This document shows, piece after piece, positions 3,493 to 56,556 of a stretch of 64,000 nt of DNA (position 1 is its first letter; each line of letters starts with the position of its first letter). Source of the stretch: Bryobacteraceae bacterium. GTDB taxonomy: Bacteria; Acidobacteriota; Terriglobia; Bryobacterales; Bryobacteraceae. The notes under the pieces were generated by a model. It was given only the letters and a program-made list of their open reading frames with translations. It was not told where the DNA came from and did not search any database. The stretch covers positions 2,424 to 66,423 of the forward strand of contig DATJVN010000118.1 of NCBI GenBank assembly GCA_035501755.1, given 5' to 3'. Both the position numbers and the translations under genes were made by a program.

Positions 3493-3984
3493 TCAGCGTA
3501 CCACGGATCTGGCGCGATGTTCTTTATATGCCGCGCGCACGCCCGCGATCTGCTTCACGTGATTCTCGGCGTGTTCGGCGATGAGGCGTGTGAGATCGAG
3601 CAGGCTCATTTTTCCACGAGTGGTGTGCGTCCCCGCGCGCGCGAAGGCGGATTCGGGCAGATCCTTGATGACCTGGAAATTCGACTGCCGCAATACGCGA
3701 AACAGCTCCAGCGCCTGCGATATTTTGCGCTTTTCGTAATCGAGCTTCTCGGCCCACGCGTTCTGATCCCACGCGGGCAGCGTGGGATTATCCTCGGCGA
3801 TAATCTGGCGCAGCCGCATCGCGGCAGCGGCCTCGGCATCGGCGAGATGGCACACGATCTGGCGCACGCTCCATTTATTTTCGGGCTTGAAATCGAGCTC
3901 GGGACCGGCGGCGCCGGTGGTCGCGACAGCCAGCAGTTCCGGCCCGCGGCGGAATCTTTCCAGGAGATCGGTGAATTCGCTCAT
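3493..3984 (-). CDS. DinB family (DinB_2 four-helix) protein
   Basis: 163 aa with WSVRQIVCHLADAE ... IAEHAENHVKQI pattern (His-containing helices) typical of the DinB/YfiT-like superfamily. Confidence 0.8.
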   Translation of the reverse strand: MSEFTDLLERFRRGPELLAVATTGAAGPELDFKPENKWSVRQIVCHLADAEAAAAMRLRQIIAEDNPTLPAWDQNAWAEKLDYEKRKISQALELFRVLRQSNFQVIKDLPESAFARAGTHTTRGKMSLLDLTRLIAEHAENHVKQIAGVRAAYKEHRARSVVR

Positions 3985-4409: not shown

Positions 4410-5159
4410 TCATGCGCTCGCGACATCATGAGCGGAGCAGCAGAAGTATCCGCTGTCATGAAGGTGGGACCGGTCTGAATCGGACAATGTCTCCCAGCAC
4501 TCATCTTGGCCGAGGCCGCTCAACAGAAGCAGCTCGCGGCAAGCCGGCACGCGAACGCCGGGACTCGGGTGCCGGGCCAAACCGCGTTCCAGTTTGACAA
4601 TCCTCCACAAATCGAGTGCATTGCCCGGGTCGCTGTAGCGGAAATATGGATACGTGATACGGGTTGAAGAGTCGGCGCTGGCGATCCACCAATTCATCAG
4701 CGCGACCCTCTCCCACAGCGGCTGCGAGTCATTGAGCGGCAGGCGATCATGCCGACCGGTGGTGACGGGGAAAATACTTCGCCACCAGTCCCGGACGACG
4801 TGGTATCTTCCGCTTTCCCTTCGAACAAGAAACAGATCGCGTTCGCCTTCACGAGTAGAATTCCAATCGCCGGATGTCCCATCCGTCCAAAAGATCTCGT
4901 ACACATCAATGGCTGGACGCGACTCCGTGCCGCGCAAGACAGTCTCGATGCGAACCTCGCGCCGCAAAATCTTCCAGTATTTGGCCATTCCTGGATCATT
5001 GTTAGTTACCAGCCGGAAAAAGGGCCACCGCTCCAAGCTCTGCTGCTGGATGACGCCGATGAATACCAGGTCCGATCGCTGCAACATTGCGTCCGAAGAC
5101 ATGGTAGGCGAGAAAACGAGCCTGGGCCCGCATTCGCATAACAGGAGCAATCCGAGCAT
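4410..5159 (-). CDS. Hypothetical protein in a lower-GC islet
   Basis: Long ORF (track 4410..5324). Start chosen at the Met before hydrophobic MLGLLLLCEC, because upstream starts would overlap the toxin gene. No family motif recognised. Composition visibly less GC-rich than neighbours. Confidence 0.45.
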   Translation of the reverse strand: MLGLLLLCECGPRLVFSPTMSSDAMLQRSDLVFIGVIQQQSLERWPFFRLVTNNDPGMAKYWKILRREVRIETVLRGTESRPAIDVYEIFWTDGTSGDWNSTREGERDLFLVRRESGRYHVVRDWWRSIFPVTTGRHDRLPLNDSQPLWERVALMNWWIASADSSTRITYPYFRYSDPGNALDLWRIVKLERGLARHPSPGVRVPACRELLLLSGLGQDECWETLSDSDRSHLHDSGYFCCSAHDVASA

Positions 5160-5223: not shown

Positions 5224-5460
5224 TTACTTCTTGGGATGTGCCTGGATCTCATGCAGGAGATACGTATCGCCAGCGATCGTGAAATAGAATCGCCAGGAGT
5301 CGTTGACGCGCGCCTGCCAGACATTGCCGCTCTTCAATCGGAGCGACGGATGGCGTGGGTCTTCGAGCAGGAGGACGGATTGTTTGTCAAACGCTCGCTG
5401 GACAAGGGCCGGAGCTTTCCGATAACTCCGCAGGAAGTGTGGCGAGAATTCAACCTTCAT
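5224..5460 (-). CDS. Type II toxin, RelE/ParE superfamily
   Basis: 78 aa, MKVEFSPHFLRSYRKAP...WQARVNDSWRFYFTIAGDTYLLHEIQAHPKK, the typical RelE/ParE-like size and C-terminal pattern. Start overlaps the antitoxin stop by 11 nt. Confidence 0.75.
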   Translation of the reverse strand: MKVEFSPHFLRSYRKAPALVQRAFDKQSVLLLEDPRHPSLRLKSGNVWQARVNDSWRFYFTIAGDTYLLHEIQAHPKK

Positions 5461-5851: not shown

Positions 5852-7681
5852 ATGCAATCCAAAACGTTTTTTCTCACCCTCGCGCTCGCATCTCTTTGCG
5901 TAGCGCAGTCCCGGCAATGGGACCATCCCATGCGGCAGGCCGTGCGCGGCGACCATGGCGCCGTCGCGGCCGGTAGCGAATACGCGACCGAAGCCGGGAT
6001 GCGCACCTATTATCGCGGCGGAAACGCCGTCGATGCGGGCGTCGCCGCGATGTTCGCTGCTTCCGTCACCGAGTTCTCCCACTTCGGGATGGGCGGCGAA
6101 GCGCCGATTCTCATCCGCACCAAGGAGGGGAAAGTTTATGCGATCGCCGGCGTGGGGCCCATGCCCAAGCTCGCCAGTGCGGACATGTTCCGTAACCGCC
6201 CGCTCAAAATCGGCGAGCTTTTTGAAACCGAGCCCGGCGGGTTGAAGCACATCATCCCCGTCGCCGGAATCATGCCCGCGCTGGTGCCCGGCATGGTCGA
6301 CGCCGGCCTGGTCGCGCTGCGCGATTTCGGTACGAAATCCTTCCATGAGATCGCCGAGCCGGCTGTCGAACTGGCCGACGGCTTCGCCATCGACGCGATG
6401 CGCGCCGATAGCATCGCCGCCAGCCGCCAGTTTTTCGAATTGTGGCCCACCTCGATGGCGCATTTCATGCCCAACGGGCACATGCCTCGCGTCGGCGACA
6501 TTTTCCGCCAGCCCGACCTCGCCCGCACGCTGCGCGGCATGATTGAAGCCGAGAAAAAAGCGCTCGCCGCGGGCGCCAGCCGCCAGGGCGGCATCGACGC
6601 CGTGCGCAATTATTTTTATCGCGGCGAAATCGCGCGTAAAATCGACGCCTTCATGAAAGCCAACGGCGGCCTGCTGCGCTATGAAGACATGGCCGCGTTC
6701 AAGCTCGAGCCCGAAGAGCCGGTGATGGGCACCTATCACGGCTATAAAGTTTATAAACCCGGCTTCTGGAGCCAGGGCCCCGCGATGATCGAAACGCTCA
6801 ACATCATGGAAGCGTTCGAAGGCCGCTCGCCGCCGCTCAATTCGGCCGAATATATTCACCGGTTGACTGAAGCGCTGAAGCTCGCCTACGCCGATCGCGA
6901 CACCTATTACGGCGATCCCAAATTCAATCACATTCCGTCCGACGTTCTGCTCTCGAAAGAATACGGCCTGGAGCGCCGCAAGCTGATCACCGAGCATGCG
7001 TCGATGGATTTCATCCCCGGCACCATTCATGGAAAAACCGGCCACCACCCCACCGAGAGCCCCATGGCGCACATCAAGATCGACGACGCACTGATGGCCA
7101 AGGACACCACCTGCGTGGACGCGATCGATAAGGACGGGATCGTATTTTCGGCGACACCCTCGGGCGCGTGGATGCCCAGCGTGATCGCCGGCGACACCGG
7201 AATTCCGCTGACCGAGCGCGCGCAGCAGTTCGTCCTGACGCCGGGAAATCCGAACGAGCTCGCCGGAGGGAAACGCCCCCGCGTCACGCTCAGCCCTACC
7301 ATCGTCACCCTCCCCGACGGCCGCCCGTTCCTGGCCATGTCGACTCCCGGCGGCGACAACCAGGATCAGGCGCTGATCCAGGTTTTCTTCAACGTGATCG
7401 ATTTCAATTTGAATGCGCAGAACGCAGTGGAGGCTCCGCGGTTTCAGACCCGGCACCTGGTGTCGAGCTTCGATAATCATGCCTGGAGCCGCGGCGATTT
7501 GATTCTCGACGAGCGCATCCCCGGCGCGGTTGCCAATGAACTGGCTGAGCGAGGCCATCACGTGAGCTCGTGCTCGCGCTGGTCCAACGGGGCGTGCCCG
7601 GTGTTGATCAAAGTTCTGCCCAGCGGAATTCTGGAAGCGGGCGCGGACCCGTTCTACGACCGCTCGGCGCATGCGTGGTGA
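5852..7681 (+). CDS. ggt: Gamma-glutamyltransferase
   Basis: 609 aa with signal peptide MQSKTFFLTLALASLCVAQS. GGT-family blocks including the autoprocessing/nucleophile region KDTTCVDAIDKDG and C-terminal PGGDNQDQA / EAGADP motifs. Confidence 0.92.
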   Translation: MQSKTFFLTLALASLCVAQSRQWDHPMRQAVRGDHGAVAAGSEYATEAGMRTYYRGGNAVDAGVAAMFAASVTEFSHFGMGGEAPILIRTKEGKVYAIAGVGPMPKLASADMFRNRPLKIGELFETEPGGLKHIIPVAGIMPALVPGMVDAGLVALRDFGTKSFHEIAEPAVELADGFAIDAMRADSIAASRQFFELWPTSMAHFMPNGHMPRVGDIFRQPDLARTLRGMIEAEKKALAAGASRQGGIDAVRNYFYRGEIARKIDAFMKANGGLLRYEDMAAFKLEPEEPVMGTYHGYKVYKPGFWSQGPAMIETLNIMEAFEGRSPPLNSAEYIHRLTEALKLAYADRDTYYGDPKFNHIPSDVLLSKEYGLERRKLITEHASMDFIPGTIHGKTGHHPTESPMAHIKIDDALMAKDTTCVDAIDKDGIVFSATPSGAWMPSVIAGDTGIPLTERAQQFVLTPGNPNELAGGKRPRVTLSPTIVTLPDGRPFLAMSTPGGDNQDQALIQVFFNVIDFNLNAQNAVEAPRFQTRHLVSSFDNHAWSRGDLILDERIPGAVANELAERGHHVSSCSRWSNGACPVLIKVLPSGILEAGADPFYDRSAHAW

Positions 7682-7682
7682 G

Positions 7683-8202
7683 CAGTTCGTAGTTCATGGT
7701 CCGTAGTCCGTAGTTAGGGCCTGCCAATCGAGGCGCGCCTAAACTCCTGGTAGCGGGCGAAGCTGGCCGTCCGGCGAATCAATGTGGCAAGATGCGCTCG
7801 AAGACGTCTGACCCCTTCCGTCTTAGCGTACCCGAGGCGGCCGGCGATTTCGAAAAGCGTGTCAAGTTCGTACATGGAACCGACTGCGATCTGGATGAAC
7901 CTGGCGAACTCGCCCGGACTGCCGCGTCCGGCGCCCTCGGCGATGTTGGTTGGAACCGATATGGCGGCTCGCCGCACCTGGCTCGTTAAGCCGTACACCT
8001 CTTCGCGCGGCCAGCCGCGTGTCGAACGGTACGCATCTTCGACGAGTGAGATCGCGGCGCGCCAAATCTCAAGGCTGGAAACGCTGCGTGGCGCCATGAT
8101 TATATGTGCTCGAATCCGCGGAGAGTTCTCTGAGAATCCGTCCGCTCTCCGCATGAATCGCGAACCCCGAACTACGAACCACGGACCACGAACCACGAAC
8201 TG
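7683..8202 (-). mobile_element. rRNA-IVS-like cassette: four-helix-bundle gene bracketed by 33-nt inverted repeats
   Basis: 7683-7715 CAGTTCGTAGTTCATGGTCCGTAGTCCGTAGTT versus reverse complement of 8170-8202 CAGTTCGTGGTTCGTGGTCCGTGGTTCGTAGTT: 29/33 identical, and all 4 differences are transitions. Arms are tandem GTYCGTR heptamers. The cassette fills the ggt-stop to DUF72-start gap to within 1-2 nt. Confidence 0.6.
7714..8097 (-). CDS. Four-helix-bundle protein (23S rRNA intervening-sequence protein family)
   Basis: EIWRAAISLVEDAYRSTRGWPREEVYGLTSQVRRAAISVPTNIAEGAGRGSPGEFARFIQIAVGSMYELDT matches the family signature (...RAA.SI..NIAEG..R....E...FL.IA.GS..E..). Start moved to Met42 of the track ORF, because the first 41 codons translate the right repeat arm. 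Confidence 0.85.
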   Translation of the reverse strand: MAPRSVSSLEIWRAAISLVEDAYRSTRGWPREEVYGLTSQVRRAAISVPTNIAEGAGRGSPGEFARFIQIAVGSMYELDTLFEIAGRLGYAKTEGVRRLRAHLATLIRRTASFARYQEFRRASIGRP

Positions 8203-8203
8203 A

Positions 8204-9136
8204 GTGCTCCCCCTCTTCACCCCCGACTTCGACCGCGACGGCCTCGCCGCACGTTTGCGCTCGCTCGCCGCGGAAAAAATCTGGATTGGCGCCAGCTCGT
8301 GGAAATATGAAGGCTGGCTTGGACAGATCTACTCCCGCGACCGTTATCTTTCACGCGGCAAATTTTCCGAAAAGCGCTTCAACGCGGAATGTCTGGCAGA
8401 ATACGCCGAAACATTCCCCGTGGTCTGCGGAGATTTTTCCTTTTATCAGTTCCCGTCGCCGGAGTTCTGGAAAAAATTGTTCGCTTCGGCGCCGGCTTCG
8501 TTGCGCTTCGCACTGAAGGTTCCCGAGGAAGTCACCTGCGAGACTTTCCCGAAGCAGCCGCGTTACGGATCGCGCGCCGGACAGCGGAACGAATCCTTCC
8601 TGAACTCCGACGCACTTCAGTCGTTGTTCCTCGATCCGCTCACCCCCTACGCCGCGCGCGTCTCGCCGCTGATCTTCGAATTCGGCGCGCGATCCACGCC
8701 GCCCATCGCGTTCATCGACCGTCTGGACGCCTTTTTCGACGCGCTCCCCGGAACCTTCCGCTACGCGGTCGAGATTCGCAACCGCGAATTTCTCGCCCCG
8801 CGGTATTTCGACTCGCTCCGCGCGCACTCGGTCGCGCACGTCTTCAATTCCTGGACGCGCATGCCGCCTCTGTCGCACCAGTTCGCCATCGAAGCCGCCT
8901 TCACCGCCGATTTCTCCGTCACGCGCGCGCTGCTTCGGCCAGGCCGCGCGTATGAAGACGCGGTCAAAATGTTTTCGCCTTACGATAAAATCCTCGACGA
9001 AAATCCGGAAGTCCGAGAGTCGCTGCGCGCGCTGATCCGCCGCATGCGCGAGGAACGCCGCGCCGCTTACATCTTCGTCAACAACCGCCTGGAAGGAAAC
9101 GCGCCGGAAACGATTCGCGCCGTCATCGCCGAATGA
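8204..9136 (+). CDS. DUF72 (UPF0759) family protein
   Basis: 310 aa with GTG start. WIGASSWKYEGWLGQIYS N-terminal block and overall TIM-barrel-like DUF72 pattern. ATGA overlap with hrpB. Confidence 0.8.
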   Translation: MLPLFTPDFDRDGLAARLRSLAAEKIWIGASSWKYEGWLGQIYSRDRYLSRGKFSEKRFNAECLAEYAETFPVVCGDFSFYQFPSPEFWKKLFASAPASLRFALKVPEEVTCETFPKQPRYGSRAGQRNESFLNSDALQSLFLDPLTPYAARVSPLIFEFGARSTPPIAFIDRLDAFFDALPGTFRYAVEIRNREFLAPRYFDSLRAHSVAHVFNSWTRMPPLSHQFAIEAAFTADFSVTRALLRPGRAYEDAVKMFSPYDKILDENPEVRESLRALIRRMREERRAAYIFVNNRLEGNAPETIRAVIAE

Positions 9137-27210: not shown

Positions 27211-27813
27211 ATGTTTGCCCCCGCGCTCGGCTGGCGCACCGATCTCGAACCGGAAACCCTCCCGGCGGCCATCGACTGCCCGCGCGGACGGATCACCGAA
27301 GTCCTCGGCGCGCGATCGAGCGGGCGAACCACGGTCCTGCATTCGGTTCTGGCCGCATCCACGGGACGGGGCGAGTTCGCGGTCCTGATCGATACCAACG
27401 ACGGGTTCGACCCGTGCTCGGCCGCGGCGGCGGGGGTGAAGCTCGAAAAATTGATCTGGATCCGCTGCTCGGGCAATGTCGAGCACGCCATGCGCGCGGC
27501 GGACATGATGATTCACGCGGGCGGATTCGGGGTGGTCGCGGTGGATCTGGCCGAGGCCGCCGATTCGGGGCTGCGGCGCATTCCGGCGACCACGTGGTTC
27601 CGCTGGCGGCGCGCGGTGGAATCTTCGAAGACGGTACTGCTGGTGGTCGCGCGCGCGCCGCTGGCGAAATCCTGCTCGGCTCTGATCGTGGAACTGTGCA
27701 GAAAGCGGGCGATTTTTTCCGGCAACCTGCTGCGCGCGGCCGAATACGAAATCGCGCGGCGGAAGCCGGTGGGAAAAGATCTCGGAGAGCTGCGTTGCGC
27801 AGCCACAGGCTAA
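27211..27813 (+). CDS. imuA: ImuA (RecA-fold, SulA-like) translesion mutagenesis protein
   Basis: GRITEVLGARSSGRTTVLHSVLAAST...AVLIDTNDGFDPCSAAAAGVKLEKLIWIRC pattern, and position as the first gene of an imuA-imuB-dnaE2 cassette. Confidence 0.8.
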   Translation: MFAPALGWRTDLEPETLPAAIDCPRGRITEVLGARSSGRTTVLHSVLAASTGRGEFAVLIDTNDGFDPCSAAAAGVKLEKLIWIRCSGNVEHAMRAADMMIHAGGFGVVAVDLAEAADSGLRRIPATTWFRWRRAVESSKTVLLVVARAPLAKSCSALIVELCRKRAIFSGNLLRAAEYEIARRKPVGKDLGELRCAATG

Positions 27814-27817
27814 TGGC

Positions 27818-28948
27818 ATGTATGCCTGCATCCATTCCGATGACGCGGGAGAGCTGGCGCGGTCGTTTTCTCCGTTCGTGGAGATGATCGACGCGCGCAC
27901 GGCTGTTTTTTCGATCACTGCGCGGCAGATCACGGCGATCCGACGGCTGAAGCGTGCCGCGATCGCCTCGACCATCGATGCCGCGGTACTGGCCGCGCGG
28001 CACTTTGATGGATTTACGACCATCGCTCCTGGCGATGAGTCGCGCGTGCTGGGCACGCTGTCAATCGATGCGCTGCCGCCCGATCCGGAAATTTTCGAGA
28101 CGCTGGAAATGTGGGGTATCCGAACGCTCGCCGATCTGGCGCGACTGCCGGAAAACGGAATCGTGGAGAGGCTGGGCGAGCGTGGGCTGCGGCAGTATCG
28201 CCTGGCTCGCGGCGCGCTCGACCGGCCGCTCCAACCCGAACCCATTGAAGTTACCTACGAAGAGTGTGCCGAGTTCGACCATCCGCTGGAGCTCGCCGAG
28301 CCGGTGCTGCTGGTGATCGGGCGATTTTTGAACGAGTTGTGCGGGCGGCTGGATCGCCGGTCGGTTTCGGCGGGGGCGTTGAATCTGATGTTGAACCGTA
28401 CGGAGCGCACGCTGCGGCTTCCCTTCCCCACGCGCGATTCGAAATTTTTATTGAAGCTGGTGCAGCACGATCTCGAAGCGCACAAACCGGATGCGCCGGT
28501 CGAAAAAATCCGGGTTGCCATTGTTCCGGCCGAATCCAGGCGCGTGCAGCACGATCTGTTCGAGCCGTCGGCGCCGGAGCCGGAAAAGCTGGAGCTGACG
28601 CTCGGAAAGATTCGCGCGCTGGTGGGCGAGAGAAATGTGAAAACGCCGGAGCTGCGCGACACGCACCGTCCGGGGTGGTCGGTTTCAGACATGCGCCTGG
28701 CGTTCCGCTATTTCCGGCCGCCGATGGAGGCGCGCGTGGAGACCGAAGGCGGCGTTCCGAAACAGATTTCGACCCGCGTGTTTCGCGGAAAAATCGCCCA
28801 AACCGCGGGGCCGTGGCGGTCGAGCGGGGATTGGTGGAGAGAAGACGCGTGGAATCGCGACGAGTGGGACATCGCGGTGGCCGATGGCGCGCTGTACCGC
28901 ATTTATCGCGCCCCGGCGGGGTGGTTCGTGGAAGGAATTTATGACTGA
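27818..28948 (+). CDS. imuB: ImuB (Y-family polymerase-like, catalytically inactive type)
   Basis: MYACIH... N-terminus typical of ImuB, Y-family-like fold pattern, and position between imuA and dnaE2. Confidence 0.75.
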   Translation: MYACIHSDDAGELARSFSPFVEMIDARTAVFSITARQITAIRRLKRAAIASTIDAAVLAARHFDGFTTIAPGDESRVLGTLSIDALPPDPEIFETLEMWGIRTLADLARLPENGIVERLGERGLRQYRLARGALDRPLQPEPIEVTYEECAEFDHPLELAEPVLLVIGRFLNELCGRLDRRSVSAGALNLMLNRTERTLRLPFPTRDSKFLLKLVQHDLEAHKPDAPVEKIRVAIVPAESRRVQHDLFEPSAPEPEKLELTLGKIRALVGERNVKTPELRDTHRPGWSVSDMRLAFRYFRPPMEARVETEGGVPKQISTRVFRGKIAQTAGPWRSSGDWWREDAWNRDEWDIAVADGALYRIYRAPAGWFVEGIYD

Positions 28949-28949
28949 T

Positions 28950-29001
28950 AGCCGCGAATGAACGCAAAAGTTGGCGTGAATGAACGTGAGCGAACGTGAA
29001 T
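28950..29001. repeat. REP-like repeat, half element (3 degenerate GAATGAACG units)
   Basis: AGCCGCGAATGAACGCAAAAGTTGGCGTGAATGAACGTGAGCGAACGTGAATT. The first 20 nt match the left arm of the 55106 palindrome at 18/20. Contains the GTG start of dnaE2 (28996). Confidence 0.55.
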
Positions 29002-32000
29002 TATGTAGAGTTTCATGCCCGGTCCGCTTTTAGCTTCCTGGAAGCGGCTTCGCTACCCGAGGATCTGGTCCAGCGTTGCGCCGACCTGGGGCACGCGGCG
29101 GTCGCGCTGATGGATCGCGACAATCTGTGCGGCGCGCCGCGGTTTTATATGGCCGCGAAAAAGCTGGGGATGAAAGCGCATCTGGGCGCGGAGATCACCG
29201 GAACTGACGGCGATTTTTATCCCCTGCTCGCGGAAAATCGTACGGGGTATCAGAACCTGTGCCGGCTGATCACCTCCATGAAATTGCGCGCTCCCAAAGG
29301 CGAAGCCGCGGCGTCATTTGGGGAGCTGCGCGAATTTTCCGAAGGGCTGGTGTGTCTGACTGGCGAGGGTCCGCCAGTGCGTGCGCGATTTGAAAAACTG
29401 GTGAATCTTTTCGGGAGTCGCAACGTTTATGCCGAGCTTCAGCGCCACTTTCATCGCGACGAAGAGGCTCGCAATCAGGCCGTGATCGAGCTGGCGCGAT
29501 CGATGAAGCTGCCCATCCTCGCCACCAACGGCGTGCGCCACGCGACGCCGGAGGAGCGCGAGCTGTTCGACGCGCTCACCGCGGTCCGGCATAAGACTAC
29601 CGTGATGGAAGCGGGAAAATTTCTGGCGCGAAATTCGGAGCGGCACGTCAAAACTCCGCGCAAAATGGAGCGGCTGTTCGGCGATGTTCCCGAAGCCATC
29701 GCGGAAACGGCGGAGCTGTCGCGGCGGCTCGATTTCACGCTCGCCGATCTGGGCTATGAATTTCCCAAATATCCCGTCCCGCCGGATGAAACCATCCATT
29801 CCTTCCTGCGCAAGCGGACCGAGGAAGGCGCGCGCCGGCGCTACGTGCCTTATCACGACAAAGCGCGCGCGCAGATCGAAAAAGAACTCGCGCTCATCGA
29901 AAAATTGAATTTGGGCGGATATTTTCTGATCGTCTGGGACCTGGTCGAGTTCTGCCGGCGCGAAGGAATCCTGGTGCAGGGCCGCGGATCGGCGGCTAAC
30001 AGCGCGGTGTGTTATTCGCTGGGGATCACGGCCGTGGATCCCGTCGCGATGGATCTGCTGTTCGAGCGCTTTTTATCCGAGGAGCGCGGCGAATGGCCGG
30101 ATATCGACCTCGACCTGCCCAGCGGCGATCAGCGCGAGCGCGTGATTCAGTATGTGTATCAGCGCTACGGCCAGCGCGGCGCCGCGATGACCGCCAACGT
30201 GATCACCTATCGCGGCCGGAGCGCGGCGCGCGATATCGGCAAGGCGCTGGGCTTCGACGAAGCATCGCTTTCGCGCCTCTCTTCGCTGGTGGCGACGTGG
30301 GGATGGAAAGATCCGCGCGATACAGCCGTAAACCAGTTCACGCAGGCTGGCTTTGATTTAAACCATCAGCGCATCAAACGTTTTTTGGATTTATATGTCG
30401 CCGTGCAGAATCTGCCGCGGCATCTCGGCCAGCATTCCGGCGGCATGGTGATCTGCCAGGGGCAGCTCGATGCCGTAGTGCCGCTCGAACCGGCGACCAT
30501 GCCGGGCCGCGTGGTCATTCAATGGGACAAAGATGATTGCGCCGATCTCGGCCTGATCAAAGTGGATCTGCTGGGGCTGGGAATGATGGCGGTGCTCGAG
30601 GAATCTCTCCAATTGATTCGGGAGCATTACCGCGAAGAGGTCGACCTGGCGCATCTTCCGCAGGACGACTCCGCGGTTTACCAGGCATTGCAGCGCGCCG
30701 ACACCATCGGCATGTTTCAGGTGGAAAGCCGCGCGCAGATGTCCTGCCTGCCGCGGCTGAAGCCCAAAAAATTCTACGACATTGTTGTTCAGGTGGCGAT
30801 TATCCGGCCCGGCCCGATCGTTGGCAAGATGATGCATCCATATTTAAACCGCCGGCAGGGGTTCGAGGAAGCCGCGTGCTTGCATCCGTCGCTCGAAAGC
30901 GTTTTAAAGCGAACGCTCGGCGTGCCGCTGTTTCAGGAGCAGCTATTGCGCATCGCCATGATCGCGGCGGACTTCACGGGCGGGGAAGCGGAGGAATTGC
31001 GGCGCGCCATGGGATTCAAGCGCTCGGAGGCGCGCATGCGGGAGATCGAGGGACGGCTGCGCTCGGGGATGACGGCGAACGGAATTGTCGGCGACACGCA
31101 GGATCGCATCGTGCAATCGATCACCTCGTTCGCGCTGTACGGGTTTCCGGAATCGCACGCGGCGAGCTTCGCGCTGATCGCCTATTCGAGCGCGTATCTC
31201 AAATGCCATTACCTGGCTGCGTTCACTGCGGCGATCCTGAATCAGCAGCCCATGGGTTTTTATCATCCCGCGACGCTGGTGAAGGACGCGCAGCGCCACG
31301 GATTGCATTTTCGTCCGGTGGACGTAATGCACTCGCAGTGGAACTGCACCATCGAAGACTGTTCGGGTGAAAAGGGGGACAGACTACTCTGTCCCCAGAC
31401 GCACATTGCCGATTCCCCGATGCACGGTCGGAGTGGACAGAGCTGTCTGTCCCCTTTTTCACAGAGACGCGAAGCGCTCGAGCTGCGCCTCGGATTCAGC
31501 TACGTGCGCGGATTACGGCGCGAGCCGGCGGATGCGATCGTCGAGCGGCGGCCTTTTTCTTCGATCGACGATCTCGCAGCTCGCGTTCCGGAACTGCGCA
31601 AGGATGAACTGCGGATGCTGGCGGAAATCGGCGCGTTGAACGGCCTGGCATCGGGTCATCGGCGCGACGCGCTGTGGCAATCCGAACGCGCCGTTCGCCC
31701 GGCGGGTCCGCTACTCGATCAGGATTCTGTGCCACAAGTCTCTCCGCTCGTCATGATGACCGCGCCCGAGCGCATCCGCGCCGATTTCTACGGCACCGGT
31801 CTCACCATCGGCTCGCATCCCATGCGGCTGTATCGCGAGAAGCTGCGCGCTCTGGGAATTTTGTCCTCGGCCGATTTGCAACGCGTGCCGCATGGTCGCC
31901 TGGTGCGCGTGGCAGGATGCGTCATCTGCCGCCAGCGCCCCGGAACGGCCAATGGATTCCTTTTCTTAAGCCTCGAAGATGAAACCGGCATCACCAACGC

Positions 32001-32172
32001 GATCGTCGAGCCGGAAAAATTCGACTGCCATCGCGAAACGCTGGTACGCGCTCCGTACCTGATCGTCGAAGGGATTGTACAAAACCAGCAGGGCGCGATT
32101 TCCCTCAAGCTGCGCGATGTGGAGCCGCTCGCGCTCGACGTAATCGCTGTCCCGTCGCACGATTTCAGTTGA
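28996..32172 (+). CDS. dnaE2: Error-prone DNA polymerase III alpha-like subunit DnaE2
   Basis: 1058 aa. PHP domain start NYVEFHARSAFSFLEAASLPEDL, polymerase core (GRGSAANSAVCY, DIDLD, FQVESR), and a C-terminal OB fold. Third gene of the imuA-imuB-dnaE2 cassette. Confidence 0.92.
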   Translation: MNYVEFHARSAFSFLEAASLPEDLVQRCADLGHAAVALMDRDNLCGAPRFYMAAKKLGMKAHLGAEITGTDGDFYPLLAENRTGYQNLCRLITSMKLRAPKGEAAASFGELREFSEGLVCLTGEGPPVRARFEKLVNLFGSRNVYAELQRHFHRDEEARNQAVIELARSMKLPILATNGVRHATPEERELFDALTAVRHKTTVMEAGKFLARNSERHVKTPRKMERLFGDVPEAIAETAELSRRLDFTLADLGYEFPKYPVPPDETIHSFLRKRTEEGARRRYVPYHDKARAQIEKELALIEKLNLGGYFLIVWDLVEFCRREGILVQGRGSAANSAVCYSLGITAVDPVAMDLLFERFLSEERGEWPDIDLDLPSGDQRERVIQYVYQRYGQRGAAMTANVITYRGRSAARDIGKALGFDEASLSRLSSLVATWGWKDPRDTAVNQFTQAGFDLNHQRIKRFLDLYVAVQNLPRHLGQHSGGMVICQGQLDAVVPLEPATMPGRVVIQWDKDDCADLGLIKVDLLGLGMMAVLEESLQLIREHYREEVDLAHLPQDDSAVYQALQRADTIGMFQVESRAQMSCLPRLKPKKFYDIVVQVAIIRPGPIVGKMMHPYLNRRQGFEEAACLHPSLESVLKRTLGVPLFQEQLLRIAMIAADFTGGEAEELRRAMGFKRSEARMREIEGRLRSGMTANGIVGDTQDRIVQSITSFALYGFPESHAASFALIAYSSAYLKCHYLAAFTAAILNQQPMGFYHPATLVKDAQRHGLHFRPVDVMHSQWNCTIEDCSGEKGDRLLCPQTHIADSPMHGRSGQSCLSPFSQRREALELRLGFSYVRGLRREPADAIVERRPFSSIDDLAARVPELRKDELRMLAEIGALNGLASGHRRDALWQSERAVRPAGPLLDQDSVPQVSPLVMMTAPERIRADFYGTGLTIGSHPMRLYREKLRALGILSSADLQRVPHGRLVRVAGCVICRQRPGTANGFLFLSLEDETGITNAIVEPEKFDCHRETLVRAPYLIVEGIVQNQQGAISLKLRDVEPLALDVIAVPSHDFS
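31367..31462. mobile_element. 96-nt nested-palindrome (MITE-like) element inserted in frame in dnaE2
   Basis: Terminal inverted repeats GTGAAAAGGGGGACAGA (31367-31383) and TCTGTCCCCTTTTTCAC (31446-31462) match at 16/17. Each end is itself a hairpin (GGGGACAGA-CTAC-TCTGTCCCC; GGACAGA-GCTG-TCTGTCC). Length 96 = 32 codons. Confidence 0.6.
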
Positions 32173-38141: not shown

Positions 38142-38203
38142 GCCGCGAATAAACGCGGATGAACGCAATCACGAATTCGTGTTCATTTGCGTTCATTCGC
38201 GGC
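38142..38203. repeat. REP-like imperfect palindrome between jag and mnmE
   Basis: GCCGCGAATAAACGCGGATGAACGCAATCACGAATTC / GAATTCGTGTTCATTTGCGTTCATTCGCGGC, centred on GAATTC. Same family as 55106-55175. Confidence 0.7.
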
Positions 38204-54060: not shown

Positions 54061-54191
54061 CCCCAGGAACCCTTCATCCAGTCTAGCCCGAATGCGTGCC
54101 TACGCCCGTTTCTTCCAGCGCGGTTGCGCGCCCTCGCGCTGCAAGGCTCTCTCCGCGCGTGCAAGTCGCGCATTTTCGGCGGCATGCGTCC

Positions 54192-54207
54192 TGGAGTGCC
54201 GATTGCA
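54192..54207 (+). promoter_or_regulatory. Candidate sigma-54 (-24/-12) promoter of the USP gene
   Basis: TGGAGTG-CCGA-TTGCA has GG and GC at the canonical 10-nt spacing, and the -12 element TTGCA is perfect. SD GGAGG at 54221 and ATG at 54234 fit a short leader. Confidence 0.5.
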
Positions 54208-54233
54208 CTTCTCACGGGCAGGAGGCGCGCTGT

Positions 54234-55100
54234 ATGCTCAACTTCCGCCACATTCTTTTTCCTATCGACTTTTCCGACCGCACTTGCGCGGCGGTGCCAT
54301 TTGTCGATGCATTCGCCAAACGATTCGGATCGAAAATCACCGTGCTCAGCGTCGCTCAGCCGTTCTGGTACACCGGCATGGGCGATCCGGGAGGACCGGT
54401 GGTGATCGACACCGACGAAATTTTGCGCGAGCTCGAAACGCGTCTTTCCGGAACGCTGGTGAAGGAGTTTGCGCATCTGGAAGTGGAGCGCGTGGCCGAG
54501 CTGGGCGACCCTGCTCAAGTCATCGTGGATTTCGCTCGCGACAACAAAGTCGATCTCATTATGATGCCCACGCACGGCTACGGTCCGTTTCGAAGCCTGC
54601 TGCTCGGCTCGGTCACCGCGAAAGTGCTGCATGACGCCGAGTGTCCCGTGTGGACCGCGGCGCACGTCGAGGATGCGCCGGTGCGCGACCATTCGAACAC
54701 GCGCTCGGTGCTGTGCGCGGTGGACGGCACTCCCCGCAGCATCGAGCTGATGAAGTGGGCCTCCACACTCGCCTCCGATCTCGGCGCCGGCCTGCGCCTG
54801 GTTCACGTGATCGCCGGCATGGAGGCCGGTCCCGCGCGCCAGATGGATCGCCAGTTCGAAGAGGACCTGCGCCTGGAATCCCGCAAGATGATCGAGGAGC
54901 AGCAGAAAGAGGCCGGTATTGAGGCGCCGTTATGCGTGACCGTCGGAAACATCCCCGCGGGCGTCCGCGAAGAGGCGCGGCGCCACGGCGCCCACCTGGT
55001 GGTGATCGGCCGCGGCGTGATGCATGAAACCCTGGGCCGCTTGCGCACCCATTCCTACGGCATCATCCGCCAGTCGCCTTGCCCGGTCTTGAGCGTGTAG
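54234..55100 (+). CDS. Tandem universal stress protein (two UspA domains)
   Basis: Start MLNFRHILFPIDFSD after SD AGGAGG. Two USP repeats, each with a G..GxGxxxxxLLGSV-like ATP-binding motif (HGYGPFRSLLLGSVT; IGRGVMHETLGRL). Confidence 0.85.
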   Translation: MLNFRHILFPIDFSDRTCAAVPFVDAFAKRFGSKITVLSVAQPFWYTGMGDPGGPVVIDTDEILRELETRLSGTLVKEFAHLEVERVAELGDPAQVIVDFARDNKVDLIMMPTHGYGPFRSLLLGSVTAKVLHDAECPVWTAAHVEDAPVRDHSNTRSVLCAVDGTPRSIELMKWASTLASDLGAGLRLVHVIAGMEAGPARQMDRQFEEDLRLESRKMIEEQQKEAGIEAPLCVTVGNIPAGVREEARRHGAHLVVIGRGVMHETLGRLRTHSYGIIRQSPCPVLSV

Positions 55101-55105
55101 TGTTC

Positions 55106-55175
55106 AGCCGCGAATGAATGCAAAGGAACGCGAATTCTTAACCGGATTCGCGTTCCTTTGCGTTGATTCGCGGCT
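55106..55175. repeat. REP-like palindrome (30-nt arms, 2 mismatches) between convergent genes; likely bidirectional terminator
   Basis: AGCCGCGAATGAATGCAAAGGAACGCGAAT - TCTTAACCGG - ATTCGCGTTCCTTTGCGTTGATTCGCGGCT. Lies between the USP stop (55100) and the activator stop (55174). Confidence 0.75.
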
Positions 55176-56556
55176 ATAAATTGTGCTTCTTGAGCTTGTA
55201 GCGCAGCGCGTCGCGGCCGATTCTCAACAGGCGCGCCGCCTGGGACTGGTTTCCGCCCGCGGCTTCGAGCGCGCGGATGATCAGCAGGCGCTCCTGCTCT
55301 TCGAGCGTTCCCACGCTCGGCTCGGGCGGCGGCGGAAGCGCGGCCGCGCCTTCAGCTCCCGGACCGGTCGAATGCAGATACGCCGGCAGATCCTGGACGT
55401 CGATCATGTCGCCCATGGCCATCATGCACGCGTGGCCGATCACGTTTTCCAGTTCCCGCACATTGCCCGGCCAGGAGTGTAGCGACAGCAGAATCTGCGC
55501 GCGATGCGTCAGTCCGTGGATCTCCTTGCCGTACTGGGTGGCGAATTTCGTTACGAAGTGGCGCTCCAGCAGCGGCAGGTCTTCCTTGCGCTCGGCCAGC
55601 CGCGGCACGTGGATTTCGACCATCGAGAGCCGGTAGTACAAATCCTCGCGAAAGGTTTTTTCGGCGATGGCCTGCCGCAGATCGCGATTGGTGGCGGCGA
55701 TCACGCGCACGTCCACGCGCTTGGCCGTCAGCGATCCCACGCGCTGCACCTCCTGATTTTGCAGGACGCGCAGGAGCTTGGCCTGCGTGGCGAGCGGCAT
55801 GTCGCCGATTTCGTCCAGGAACAGGGTCCCGCCGTGCGCGTGCTCGAACAGTCCCGCCTTGTCGTGCGTGGCTCCCGTGAAGGAGCCCTTCACGTGACCG
55901 AACAGCTCGCTTTCAAACAGCGTTTCGACCACGGCCGAGCAATTCAACACCACGTAGCGGCCCGAAGCCGCCGGACTGAGTTTGTGCAGCGCCTGCGCGA
56001 TCAGATCCTTGCCCGTGCCGGTCTCGCCGGTGATCAACATGGCGCGATAATGCGGCCCCACGCGCCGGATCTTGGAGAACATCTCCCACATGAGCGGGCT
56101 GCGCCCCACGATGCCCTCAAACTCCGCGCTCTGCAACAGCTCGTCTTCCAGCTGCAGCGCGCGCTGGCGGCGCCGCGCATCCTCCACCAGTTTCCCGATG
56201 CGCTCGCGCAGCGCGGCGATCGATACCGGCTTGTTCAGATAATCCGACGCGCCTTTCTTGATCGCTTCCACCGCCGATTCGGTGGAGTAATGCGCGGTCA
56301 TCAGGATCACGTCGATGGACGGATCGAACTCCATGGTCCGCTCCAGCACTTCGAGGCCGCTCATGTGCGGCATCACCAGATCGGTGAGCACGATCTGCGG
56401 ACGGCGGTCGTGAATCAGGTCGATTCCGGTTTCCGGGTCGGACGCGGTCAGGATTTCGACGCCGGATTGCGCGAGCGCGGTGGAGAGCATCTCCAAACTG
56501 CCGGCGTTGTCGTCGATGATCAGCAGCGATATTGCGGGTTTAGCGGCGGCAGTCAT
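55174..56556 (-). CDS. Sigma-54-dependent response regulator (NtrC family: REC + AAA+ + Fis HTH)
   Basis: Receiver (LIIDDN...DLVMP), AAA+ [15 protein letters not shown], the GAFTGA-loop variant GSFTGA, and a C-terminal [25 protein letters not shown]. Confidence 0.92.

Follow-up and report, generated by a model that had tools for sequence, protein, structure and literature searches.

A dispersed double-hairpin palindromic repeat lying in frame within the error-prone polymerase gene dnaE2 of a Bryobacteraceae bacterium

We analysed a 64,000-nt stretch of the genome of a Bryobacteraceae bacterium (GCA_035501755.1, contig DATJVN010000118.1, positions 2,424 to 66,423 of the forward strand; called the window below, and numbered from its first letter), in which the gene for the error-prone DNA polymerase DnaE2 contains a 96-nt palindromic segment in frame. 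Reading of the sequence alone had suggested that the segment is a mobile repeat inserted into the gene, and this is referred to here as the original prediction. The gene trio at 27211-32172 is, to judge from its sequence, an imuA-imuB-dnaE2 mutagenesis cassette. The genes and the parts of the segment are as follows; entries with no sign have no strand.

27211-27813, plus strand: imuA-like gene, 200 aa, RecA-like (Pfam RecA, E = 1.8e-14).
27818-28948, plus strand: imuB-like gene, 376 aa, with a Y-family polymerase C-terminal domain (Pfam IMS_C, E = 2e-4), found at the same position in the related loci L001, L002 and L125.
28996-32172, plus strand: dnaE2, error-prone DNA polymerase, 1058 aa, intact (Pfam domains, homologues).
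31357-31366, plus strand: extra codons left of the core (DCS.), with no counterpart in the filled site of L125 or in short-loop orthologues (pairwise alignment); CTGTTCGG is common to repeat copy L013.
31367-31462: core of the double-hairpin repeat (repeat finder; nhmmer homology to 103 other copies spans 31366-31462).
31367-31394: left terminal inverted repeat, consisting of an A-run (31370-31373) and the left hairpin module, with columns invariant or nearly so in 61 copies.
31375-31396: left hairpin GGGGACAGA-CTAC-TCTGTCCCC, with a perfect 9-bp stem and its loop at 31384-31387; the exact pattern occurs in at least 120 public genome stretches, mostly from Terriglobia/Bryobacteraceae.
31397-31434: variable spacer between the hairpin modules, weakly conserved across the family, with 8/36 differences from the L125 copy.
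31435-31462: right terminal inverted repeat (repeat finder), GGACAGA-GCTG-TCTGTCC (31435-31452) followed by CC, T5 (31455-31459) and CAC.
31463-31479, plus strand: extra codons right of the core (QRREAL), with no counterpart in L125 or in short-loop orthologues (pairwise alignment); GAGA.CGAAG.GCTC is common to copy L013.

The host protein has the Pfam set PHP, DNA_pol3_alpha, DNA_pol3_finger, HHH_6 and OB fold. Its 120 best homologues are 67-88% identical, those with a name being annotated as error-prone DNA polymerase (Bryobacteraceae, Acidobacteriia or Terriglobia), and all residues that are invariant in 65 homologues, including the palm aspartates D369, D371 and D524, are present.

The double-hairpin core encodes residues 791-822 of DnaE2 (GEKGDRLLCPQTHIADSPMHGRSGQSCLSPFS), in a stop-free frame that sits between WNCTIEDCS and QRREALELRLGFSYVRGL of the open reading frame (ORF). 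Its termini, GTGAAAAGGGGGACAGA at 31367-31383 and TCTGTCCCCTTTTTCAC at 31446-31462, are complementary at 16 of 17 positions, exactly as the original prediction had it, and the inverted repeat can be extended to 28 nt (31367-31394 / 31435-31462, 89% complementary, 40 nt between the arms). Each terminus had also been described as a hairpin, and the repeat finder recovered both: the left arms (31375-31383 and 31388-31396) pair perfectly over 9 bp around the loop CTAC, and the right arms (31435-31441 and 31446-31452) pair around GCTG over 7 bp perfectly, or over 10 nt at 90%. The claim of 96 nt, or 32 codons, in frame and without a stop is correct as well and needs only one amendment, namely that the element is not codon-aligned, 31367 being the second base of a GGT codon. 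The 111-nt region folds as RNA at -56.6 kcal/mol (z = -6.0) and as DNA at -29.3 kcal/mol (z = -5.0), neither value being equalled by any shuffle, and the minimum-energy fold of the element pairs its two ends. A simple scan flagged a terminator-like site on the plus strand at 31435-31452, with the tail CCTTTTTCAC; its mirror image lies at the left end on the minus strand, where the left hairpin is followed by a T-run (CTTTT). Within the window the 9-mer GGGGACAGA occurs four times against 0.36 expected and the hairpin pattern twice against 0.14, and no second copy of the element was found within these 64 kb. Neither for the region nor for the window as a whole did any Rfam model reach its gathering score, generic hairpin-like microRNA models scoring far below threshold. 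An intein, an intron, a CRISPR repeat and a programmed frameshift site were considered and dropped, as no feature of any of them is present.

Outside the window the element is far from rare. A scan for the pattern GGGGACAGA-N4-TCTGTCCCC, with one genome per species, returned at least 120 stretches. Acidobacteriota assemblies account for about 100, with single genomes contributing many (at least 23 listed for MFD05512.bin.1.231, at least 13 each for SMAG_U14871 and SMAG_U6308, and at least 6 for JOPF219). When the window element with 30 nt of flank on each side was run by nhmmer against these loci, at least 104 non-redundant copies were obtained, that is, the window copy and at least 103 further ones in related Acidobacteria genomes, their modal length being 95-99 nt. 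Matches covered query positions of about 30-126, equivalent to 31366-31462, so that homology stops almost exactly at 31367 and 31462. The family consensus reads outer inverted repeat-TGAAAAA-GGGGACAGA-CTAC-TCTGTCCCC-~38-nt spacer-GTGGACAGA-GCGG-TCTGTCCCC-TTTTTCA-outer inverted repeat, with a layout of about 95 nt from A5 to T5. An alignment of 61 copies shows little or no variation in the two hairpin modules; it is the spacer and the outer parts that vary. Between subfamilies the outer inverted repeats change but remain self-complementary, and several subfamilies end in CTAG, which we take to be the target of IS630 elements, a lead only. On these grounds, and thus by sequence, the segment is one copy of a non-autonomous, high-copy, REPIN-like or MITE-like palindromic repeat (MITE, miniature inverted-repeat transposable element) dispersed in Bryobacteraceae and other Terriglobia, and we infer that it is mobile. 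The original reading as an element of MITE or REP type (REP, repetitive extragenic palindrome) is upheld by the further copies and by the ends of the homology.

The usual setting of the copies is between genes. By crude gene calls some 73 of the 87 classifiable copies are intergenic, usually tens of nt from a gene end, and 62 of these 73 lie between tandem (43) or convergent (19) genes, the other 11 lying between divergent ones. By shape (A-run, hairpin, hairpin, T-run) the intergenic copies look like bidirectional terminators, and may act as such. Direct repeats flanking the copies are of chance length (4-6 nt) in most cases. Two copies on CAWJHX010000006.1, L106:4572-4686 and L112:6215-6316, stand apart: they have no left outer inverted repeat, and the perfect direct repeats on either side of them (16 nt for L106, 18 nt for L112) greatly exceed the usual length of a target duplication.

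The polarity of the event in dnaE2 follows from the relatives. The element is missing from 119 of the 120 closest DnaE2 homologues, its peptide signatures occurring only in the window protein, which bears out the prediction of a lineage-specific insert. The closest homologue, P0002 of assembly JOPF219, is 88% identical, has 1026 aa (1058 minus 32) and holds no element at the site; the same assembly carries, at an unrelated locus (L114), the best family match to the window copy among the loci listed (E = 2e-20), with a similar spacer. JOPF219 thus has near-identical copies elsewhere but not in dnaE2, and by comparison with all these relatives the element is an insertion into the gene. The original prediction had expected other copies to exist and had named two outcomes as fatal to itself, homologous residues in distant orthologues and a lack of further copies; neither occurred, and the copies in related Acidobacteria are mostly intergenic. 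Peptide searches for further in-frame carriers were less informative: a 40-aa profile returned only two tiny ORFs and missed the window protein itself, and a three-sequence profile gave 11 matches against 1.84 billion representatives, mostly short spurious ORFs. The protein database was clustered at 50%, and an insert-bearing DnaE2 is represented in it by one without the insert.

The insertion falls at a particular place in the polymerase. Sequence alignment to solved structures puts it between residues 879 and 885 of Thermus aquaticus Pol III alpha and between residues 827 and 830 of the Escherichia coli alpha subunit, at the turn joining two short strands ahead of the G-x-G helix-hairpin-helix motif; the insert takes the place of this beta-hairpin turn. 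In an AlphaFold2 model built from 65 homologues (mean predicted local distance difference test score, pLDDT, 75.7), strands 785-788 and 828-831 flank residues 793-824, which score 28-41 against more than 90 in the neighbouring blocks; the insert is accordingly modelled as a disordered loop. The surface-loop position first proposed is thereby borne out. The proposal that the insert lies before the helix-hairpin-helix region fares less simply: it does precede the motif, but lies within the Pfam HHH_6 match (residues 769-890).

This site is also the most length-variable of DnaE2, with at least 8 extra residues in 43 of 120 homologues and at least 20 in 14 of 120. Most homologues have 3-4 residues between CTIE and VRLGFNY (exactly 3 in 56 of 113), so the original statement that other DnaE2 proteins have only a short linker holds for most of them but not for the 14 with 20 or more extra, unrelated residues. 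What fills the site in other loci is diverse:

L002 (closest relative), 3741-3809: (GTGGCCA/GTGGTCA)x4.
L123, 3880-4152: GGGGACA, GTGGCCA and AGAGGCC heptamer arrays.
L124: a REP-like palindrome of another kind, in three copies.
L105, reverse strand, 7178-7408: a palindrome of GGGGCCA/GGGGCCG heptamers.
L001 and three other homologues: another palindromic element, AAAAAGGGGGACTGCTTCCGATTTCG...CGAAATCGGCTTGCTGTCCCCCTTTTT.

A permissive site would be expected to take up so many unrelated repeats, and site-specific targeting need not be invoked. The heptamer arrays recall the STRR heptamer repeats of cyanobacteria. A second, weaker hotspot lies at DnaE2 residues 883-887 (about 31642-31656); in P0034, P0046, P0048 and P0071 the local HRRDA(S)L peptide motif is repeated in tandem in this second loop, which gains up to about 80 residues.

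The age of the insertion, and selection on the gene since, can be read from one orthologue. The dnaE2 of P0135 (locus L125, GCA_030042925.1) is 92.4% identical in nucleotides and carries this core too, with site and frame unchanged, and hence the insertion predates the split of the two lineages. Between the window and L125 the synonymous divergence (dS) of dnaE2 is 0.29 and the ratio of non-synonymous to synonymous divergence (dN/dS) is 0.074 (0.077 against L002). Since the gene has evolved at a dN/dS of 0.07 after the insertion, the polymerase has most likely stayed functional with the insert in place. Within the insert there are 8 non-synonymous and 3 synonymous changes (dN/dS about 0.8). 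The changes are unevenly spread over the 96 nt: the terminal modules differ from L125 at 2 of 58 positions and the centre at 8 of 36, the conservation of the modules having P = 1e-5 against a neutral rate of 0.25 and the contrast between modules and centre P = 0.006 (Fisher), while the divergence of the spacer is close to neutral. It seems, then, from these substitutions that the insert peptide as such is unconstrained and that the hairpin arms have been kept. The latter could reflect gene conversion by other copies or else selection for structure in the DNA or RNA.

Taken together, we consider it likely that DnaE2 tolerates the insert as an in-frame passenger, in its most permissive loop, and has not exapted it as a protein module. 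The sequence of events is then as follows. Copies of the family normally lie between genes and near their ends, in the shape of a bidirectional intrinsic terminator (A-run, hairpin, spacer, hairpin, T-run). One copy entered dnaE2 at the codons of the beta-hairpin tip just 5' of the helix-hairpin-helix DNA-binding motif, before the separation of two lineages that now differ by about 0.29 at synonymous sites. As it entered in an element frame without a stop codon, its translation would add to the surface a disordered loop of 32 residues, or about 39-40 if the flanks are counted. Since then dnaE2 has been under strong purifying selection; the protein is most likely functional, with the loop probably a neutral passenger whose spacer drifts at the neutral rate and whose arms may be held by a constraint at the DNA or RNA level or by gene conversion from other copies.

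Several observations weigh against this reading. No transposase partner of the family is apparent among the ORFs between paired copies, which, judged by eye, look housekeeping-like. The window copy (31357-31371 and 31464-31478) is 15 nt longer on each side than that of L125 (L125:3702-3836). The conservation of the arms within dnaE2 means that the copy may not be a purely neutral passenger. Lastly, an empty allele of the exact site was not found in metagenomes, where a first flank pattern returned nothing, so that a target-site duplication and the exact boundary of the element are unproven. Another metagenome pattern, with flanks common to both L125 and the window set 0-30 nt apart, gave a single match, by chance, in a ruvC-like gene, and was set aside. 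As to the boundary, the extra 15-nt flanks of the window copy resemble the outer parts of copy L013, and the extra codons on both sides of the core may, by this resemblance, be the outer part of the inserted element.

Beside the passenger reading, a regulatory exaptation survives best. Here the hairpins and the sense-strand U-run would attenuate transcription, stall ribosomes or set the stability of the mRNA, and so throttle an error-prone polymerase within its SOS operon. We think this unlikely; it is nonetheless the most interesting of the open readings, because it would explain a recurrent association of the repeat with the imu cassette. Four of the 103 other copies lie credibly in frame within genes (L105, L110, L005 and L003), the remaining apparently genic ones being 5' ORF extensions and really intergenic:

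L105 (CAWJHX010000002.1, Terriglobia MFD03726.bin.1.138), spans 302-416 and 4846-4939: an in-frame copy in dnaE2 and a copy at the end of imuA.
L110 (DATKKV010000016.1, Bryobacteraceae SMAG_U14667), 5277-5375: in frame in imuB (Pfam IMS), in a locus with the order imuA-imuB-dnaE2.
L005 (JOPF219), 218-307: in frame in a UvrD-type helicase, between UvrD_C segments.
L003 (MFD05377.bin.2.160), 1522-1619: in frame in a Wzy_C O-antigen ligase-like membrane protein.

The dnaE2 copy of L105 sits at the second hotspot (residues 883-887 of the window protein), as GALNFIE[KEKGDRLLCPQ...GQSGLSPFS]FHRRDALW, in the same element frame as in the window; the other L105 copy lies where imuA meets imuB and makes up the 3' end of the imuA ORF. 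At the hotspot that the window copy occupies, the dnaE2 of L105 contains a further palindromic insert, unrelated and of about 70 aa.

The imu cassettes of these two other genomes thus hold 3 of the 103 other copies, against about 0.07 expected by our own arithmetic for a small sample, which assumes a 5-kb cassette and a genome of several Mb. A like bias of REPs toward repair genes was noted in other phyla in 2013 (PMC3733652). These three copies, the in-frame copy in a UvrD-like helicase and the slow evolution of the hairpin arms in dnaE2 are the reasons for supposing that the imuA-imuB-dnaE2 cassette is a preferred place for palindromic repeats to land or be retained, for a functional reason beyond tolerance, which we hold to be unlikely. 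Were it so, the hairpins could have been favoured as attenuators within the genes, holding down the output of the error-prone polymerase, or, alternatively, the elements could be inserting at positions linked to the operon's repressed, damage-induced state. For a regulatory role also speak the terminator-like site on the sense strand (31435-31462), the very stable fold of the region, and arms that have diverged far below the neutral rate. Yet gene conversion by other copies can also yield such conservation, an intragenic terminator is normally suppressed by coupled translation, and unrelated repeats fill the same loop in other lineages. Moreover, the dnaE2 insertions of the window/L125 lineage and of L105 fall in the two most indel-tolerant loops, as tolerance predicts.

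Exaptation at the level of the protein, in which the 32-residue loop would give DnaE2 a new property such as a contact with DNA, the clamp or ImuB near the helix-hairpin-helix, is in our judgement very unlikely. The loop does adjoin a DNA-binding motif, and its frame has been kept across a split of dS 0.29. However, its own dN/dS of about 0.8 contrasts with 0.07 for the gene, pLDDT is below 50 over its whole length, 119 of 120 homologues do without it, and other lineages have unrelated sequences at the site, heptamer arrays included. The residues that are conserved are, moreover, exactly those encoded by the hairpin arms, which are conserved in intergenic copies too. Of the two fates originally proposed for the element, tolerated or exapted, the first is therefore supported by the low dN/dS of the gene, while the second, as far as the protein is concerned, is not supported, given the rate and the modelled disorder of the insert.

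That the palindrome formed locally, where an unstable, repeat-prone site slipped or was duplicated, is hardly credible: the tandem heptamer arrays in the same loop of L002 and L123 and the resemblance of GGGGACA to the hairpin arm would suit it, but more than 100 copies with the same modules and spacing at unrelated loci of many genomes (E down to 2e-20), together with the similarity of the L114 spacer to that of the window copy, effectively refute it. The chance of an assembly chimera or sequencing artefact is negligible: although such repeats do break assemblies (copies sit at contig ends in L029, L038, L058 and L070), the flanks are collinear with dnaE2 on both sides and the same in-frame insert recurs in a diverged orthologue and in four more database records of this protein, which stem from ENA, NCBI and JGI assemblies, so that independent assemblies refute it.

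Preference thus remains with the tolerated passenger. What the locus offers is a new and very sharply conserved double-hairpin repeat family in the Bryobacteraceae/Terriglobia, abundant and little-studied soil bacteria, and within it a dated example, in which an insertion is common to two lineages, the host polymerase is under strong selection and the arms rather than the peptide are conserved. It also points to two loops of DnaE2 that accept almost anything, from palindromic elements to heptamer arrays and tandem peptide repeats, which is useful for engineering or tagging the enzyme. Finally, the tendency of such repeats to occur in the error-prone polymerase cassette and in repair helicases is seen here again, independently and in a new phylum. 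Other repeats occur in the window as well. A different palindrome at 55106-55175 (30-nt arms, 93% complementary, 10 nt between them) lies between the convergent ORFs 54096-55100 (plus strand) and 55174-56556 (minus strand), and its arm motif ATTCGCGTTC recurs as a tandem repeat at 38175-38201. A heptamer array, (CGAACCA)x5.7, at 8161-8200 is just 5' of ORF 8204-9136.

Repeats of the REP and REPIN kind are the closest known counterparts. As in those, short GC-rich hairpin units are paired as inverted doublets, each about 100 nt long and able to form a single long hairpin, with tens of copies per genome, mostly just 3' of genes, and occasional in-frame copies in repair and replication genes. A REP unit is an imperfect palindrome of 20-40 nt, extragenic and of high copy number; the units here are of 22 nt and about 73 of 87 copies are intergenic. 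A REPIN joins two inverted units in a larger hairpin, and here A5 plus hairpin and hairpin plus T5 are joined in a fold of -56.6 kcal/mol. The terminal GTAG/CGTC tag of REPs is, by contrast, absent: GTAG/CTAC forms the loop of the left hairpin, the right loop being GCGG and the flanks A5/T5, and because GTAG stands in a loop and not at an end, the element falls outside REPs in the strict sense. In-frame REPs have been reported in dnaE2, uvrD, recBCD and uvrABC (Di Nocera, De Gregorio & Rocco 2013, BMC Genomics 14:522; PMC3733652), the dnaE2 cases being Opitutus terrae Oter_4053 (residues 934-971) and Sphingomonas wittichii Swit_1119 (residues 166-246), and UvrD-type helicases are among the REP-bearing genes (PMC3733652). 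The phylum, the sequence and the insertion site within DnaE2 of the Acidobacteria element are all other than in those cases.

The Rickettsia palindromic elements (RPEs; Ogata et al. 2000), as summarised in PMC10969869 and PMC3733652, resemble the present element in being palindromic repeats of 100-150 nt that lie in frame in functional genes and are translated as an extra surface segment, with other copies between genes. Here the open frame and the purifying selection on the host gene correspond to this, translation being predicted. As far as those summaries describe them, RPEs are mostly genic and each family has a conserved peptide, whereas only about 5% of the present copies are genic and the peptide is constrained only at the hairpin arms. 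The hosts here are, furthermore, free-living soil Acidobacteria, and it is by phylum and by these descriptions that we set the family apart from RPEs.

With MITEs such as the Correia elements of Neisseria, pneumococcal SPRITE and ERIC the family has in common terminal inverted repeats, a length of about 100 nt, a lack of coding function and many copies, as well as hairpin and T-run ends resembling rho-independent terminators (as in SPRITE) and subfamilies that vary in their outer inverted repeats. The inverted repeats are of 28 nt at 89% in the window copy and are conserved in 61 aligned copies, and the 104 copies are small, dispersed and without coding capacity of their own. A target-site duplication is, in distinction from MITEs, not demonstrable for the Acidobacteria element, the flanking repeats being mostly of chance length, and no parent insertion sequence whose ends match was found among the ORFs between paired copies, as judged by eye. 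The GC-rich stem-loop followed by a T-run that defines an intrinsic terminator is found on the plus strand at 31435-31452 and, mirrored, on the minus strand. With no end tag and no demonstrated target duplication or transposase partner, the element is best placed as a new family of this general kind, outside the named families. A literature search found no paper describing its sequence. A palindromic repeat in frame inside dnaE2 or repair genes is thus an already known phenomenon, represented here by a previously undescribed sequence family.

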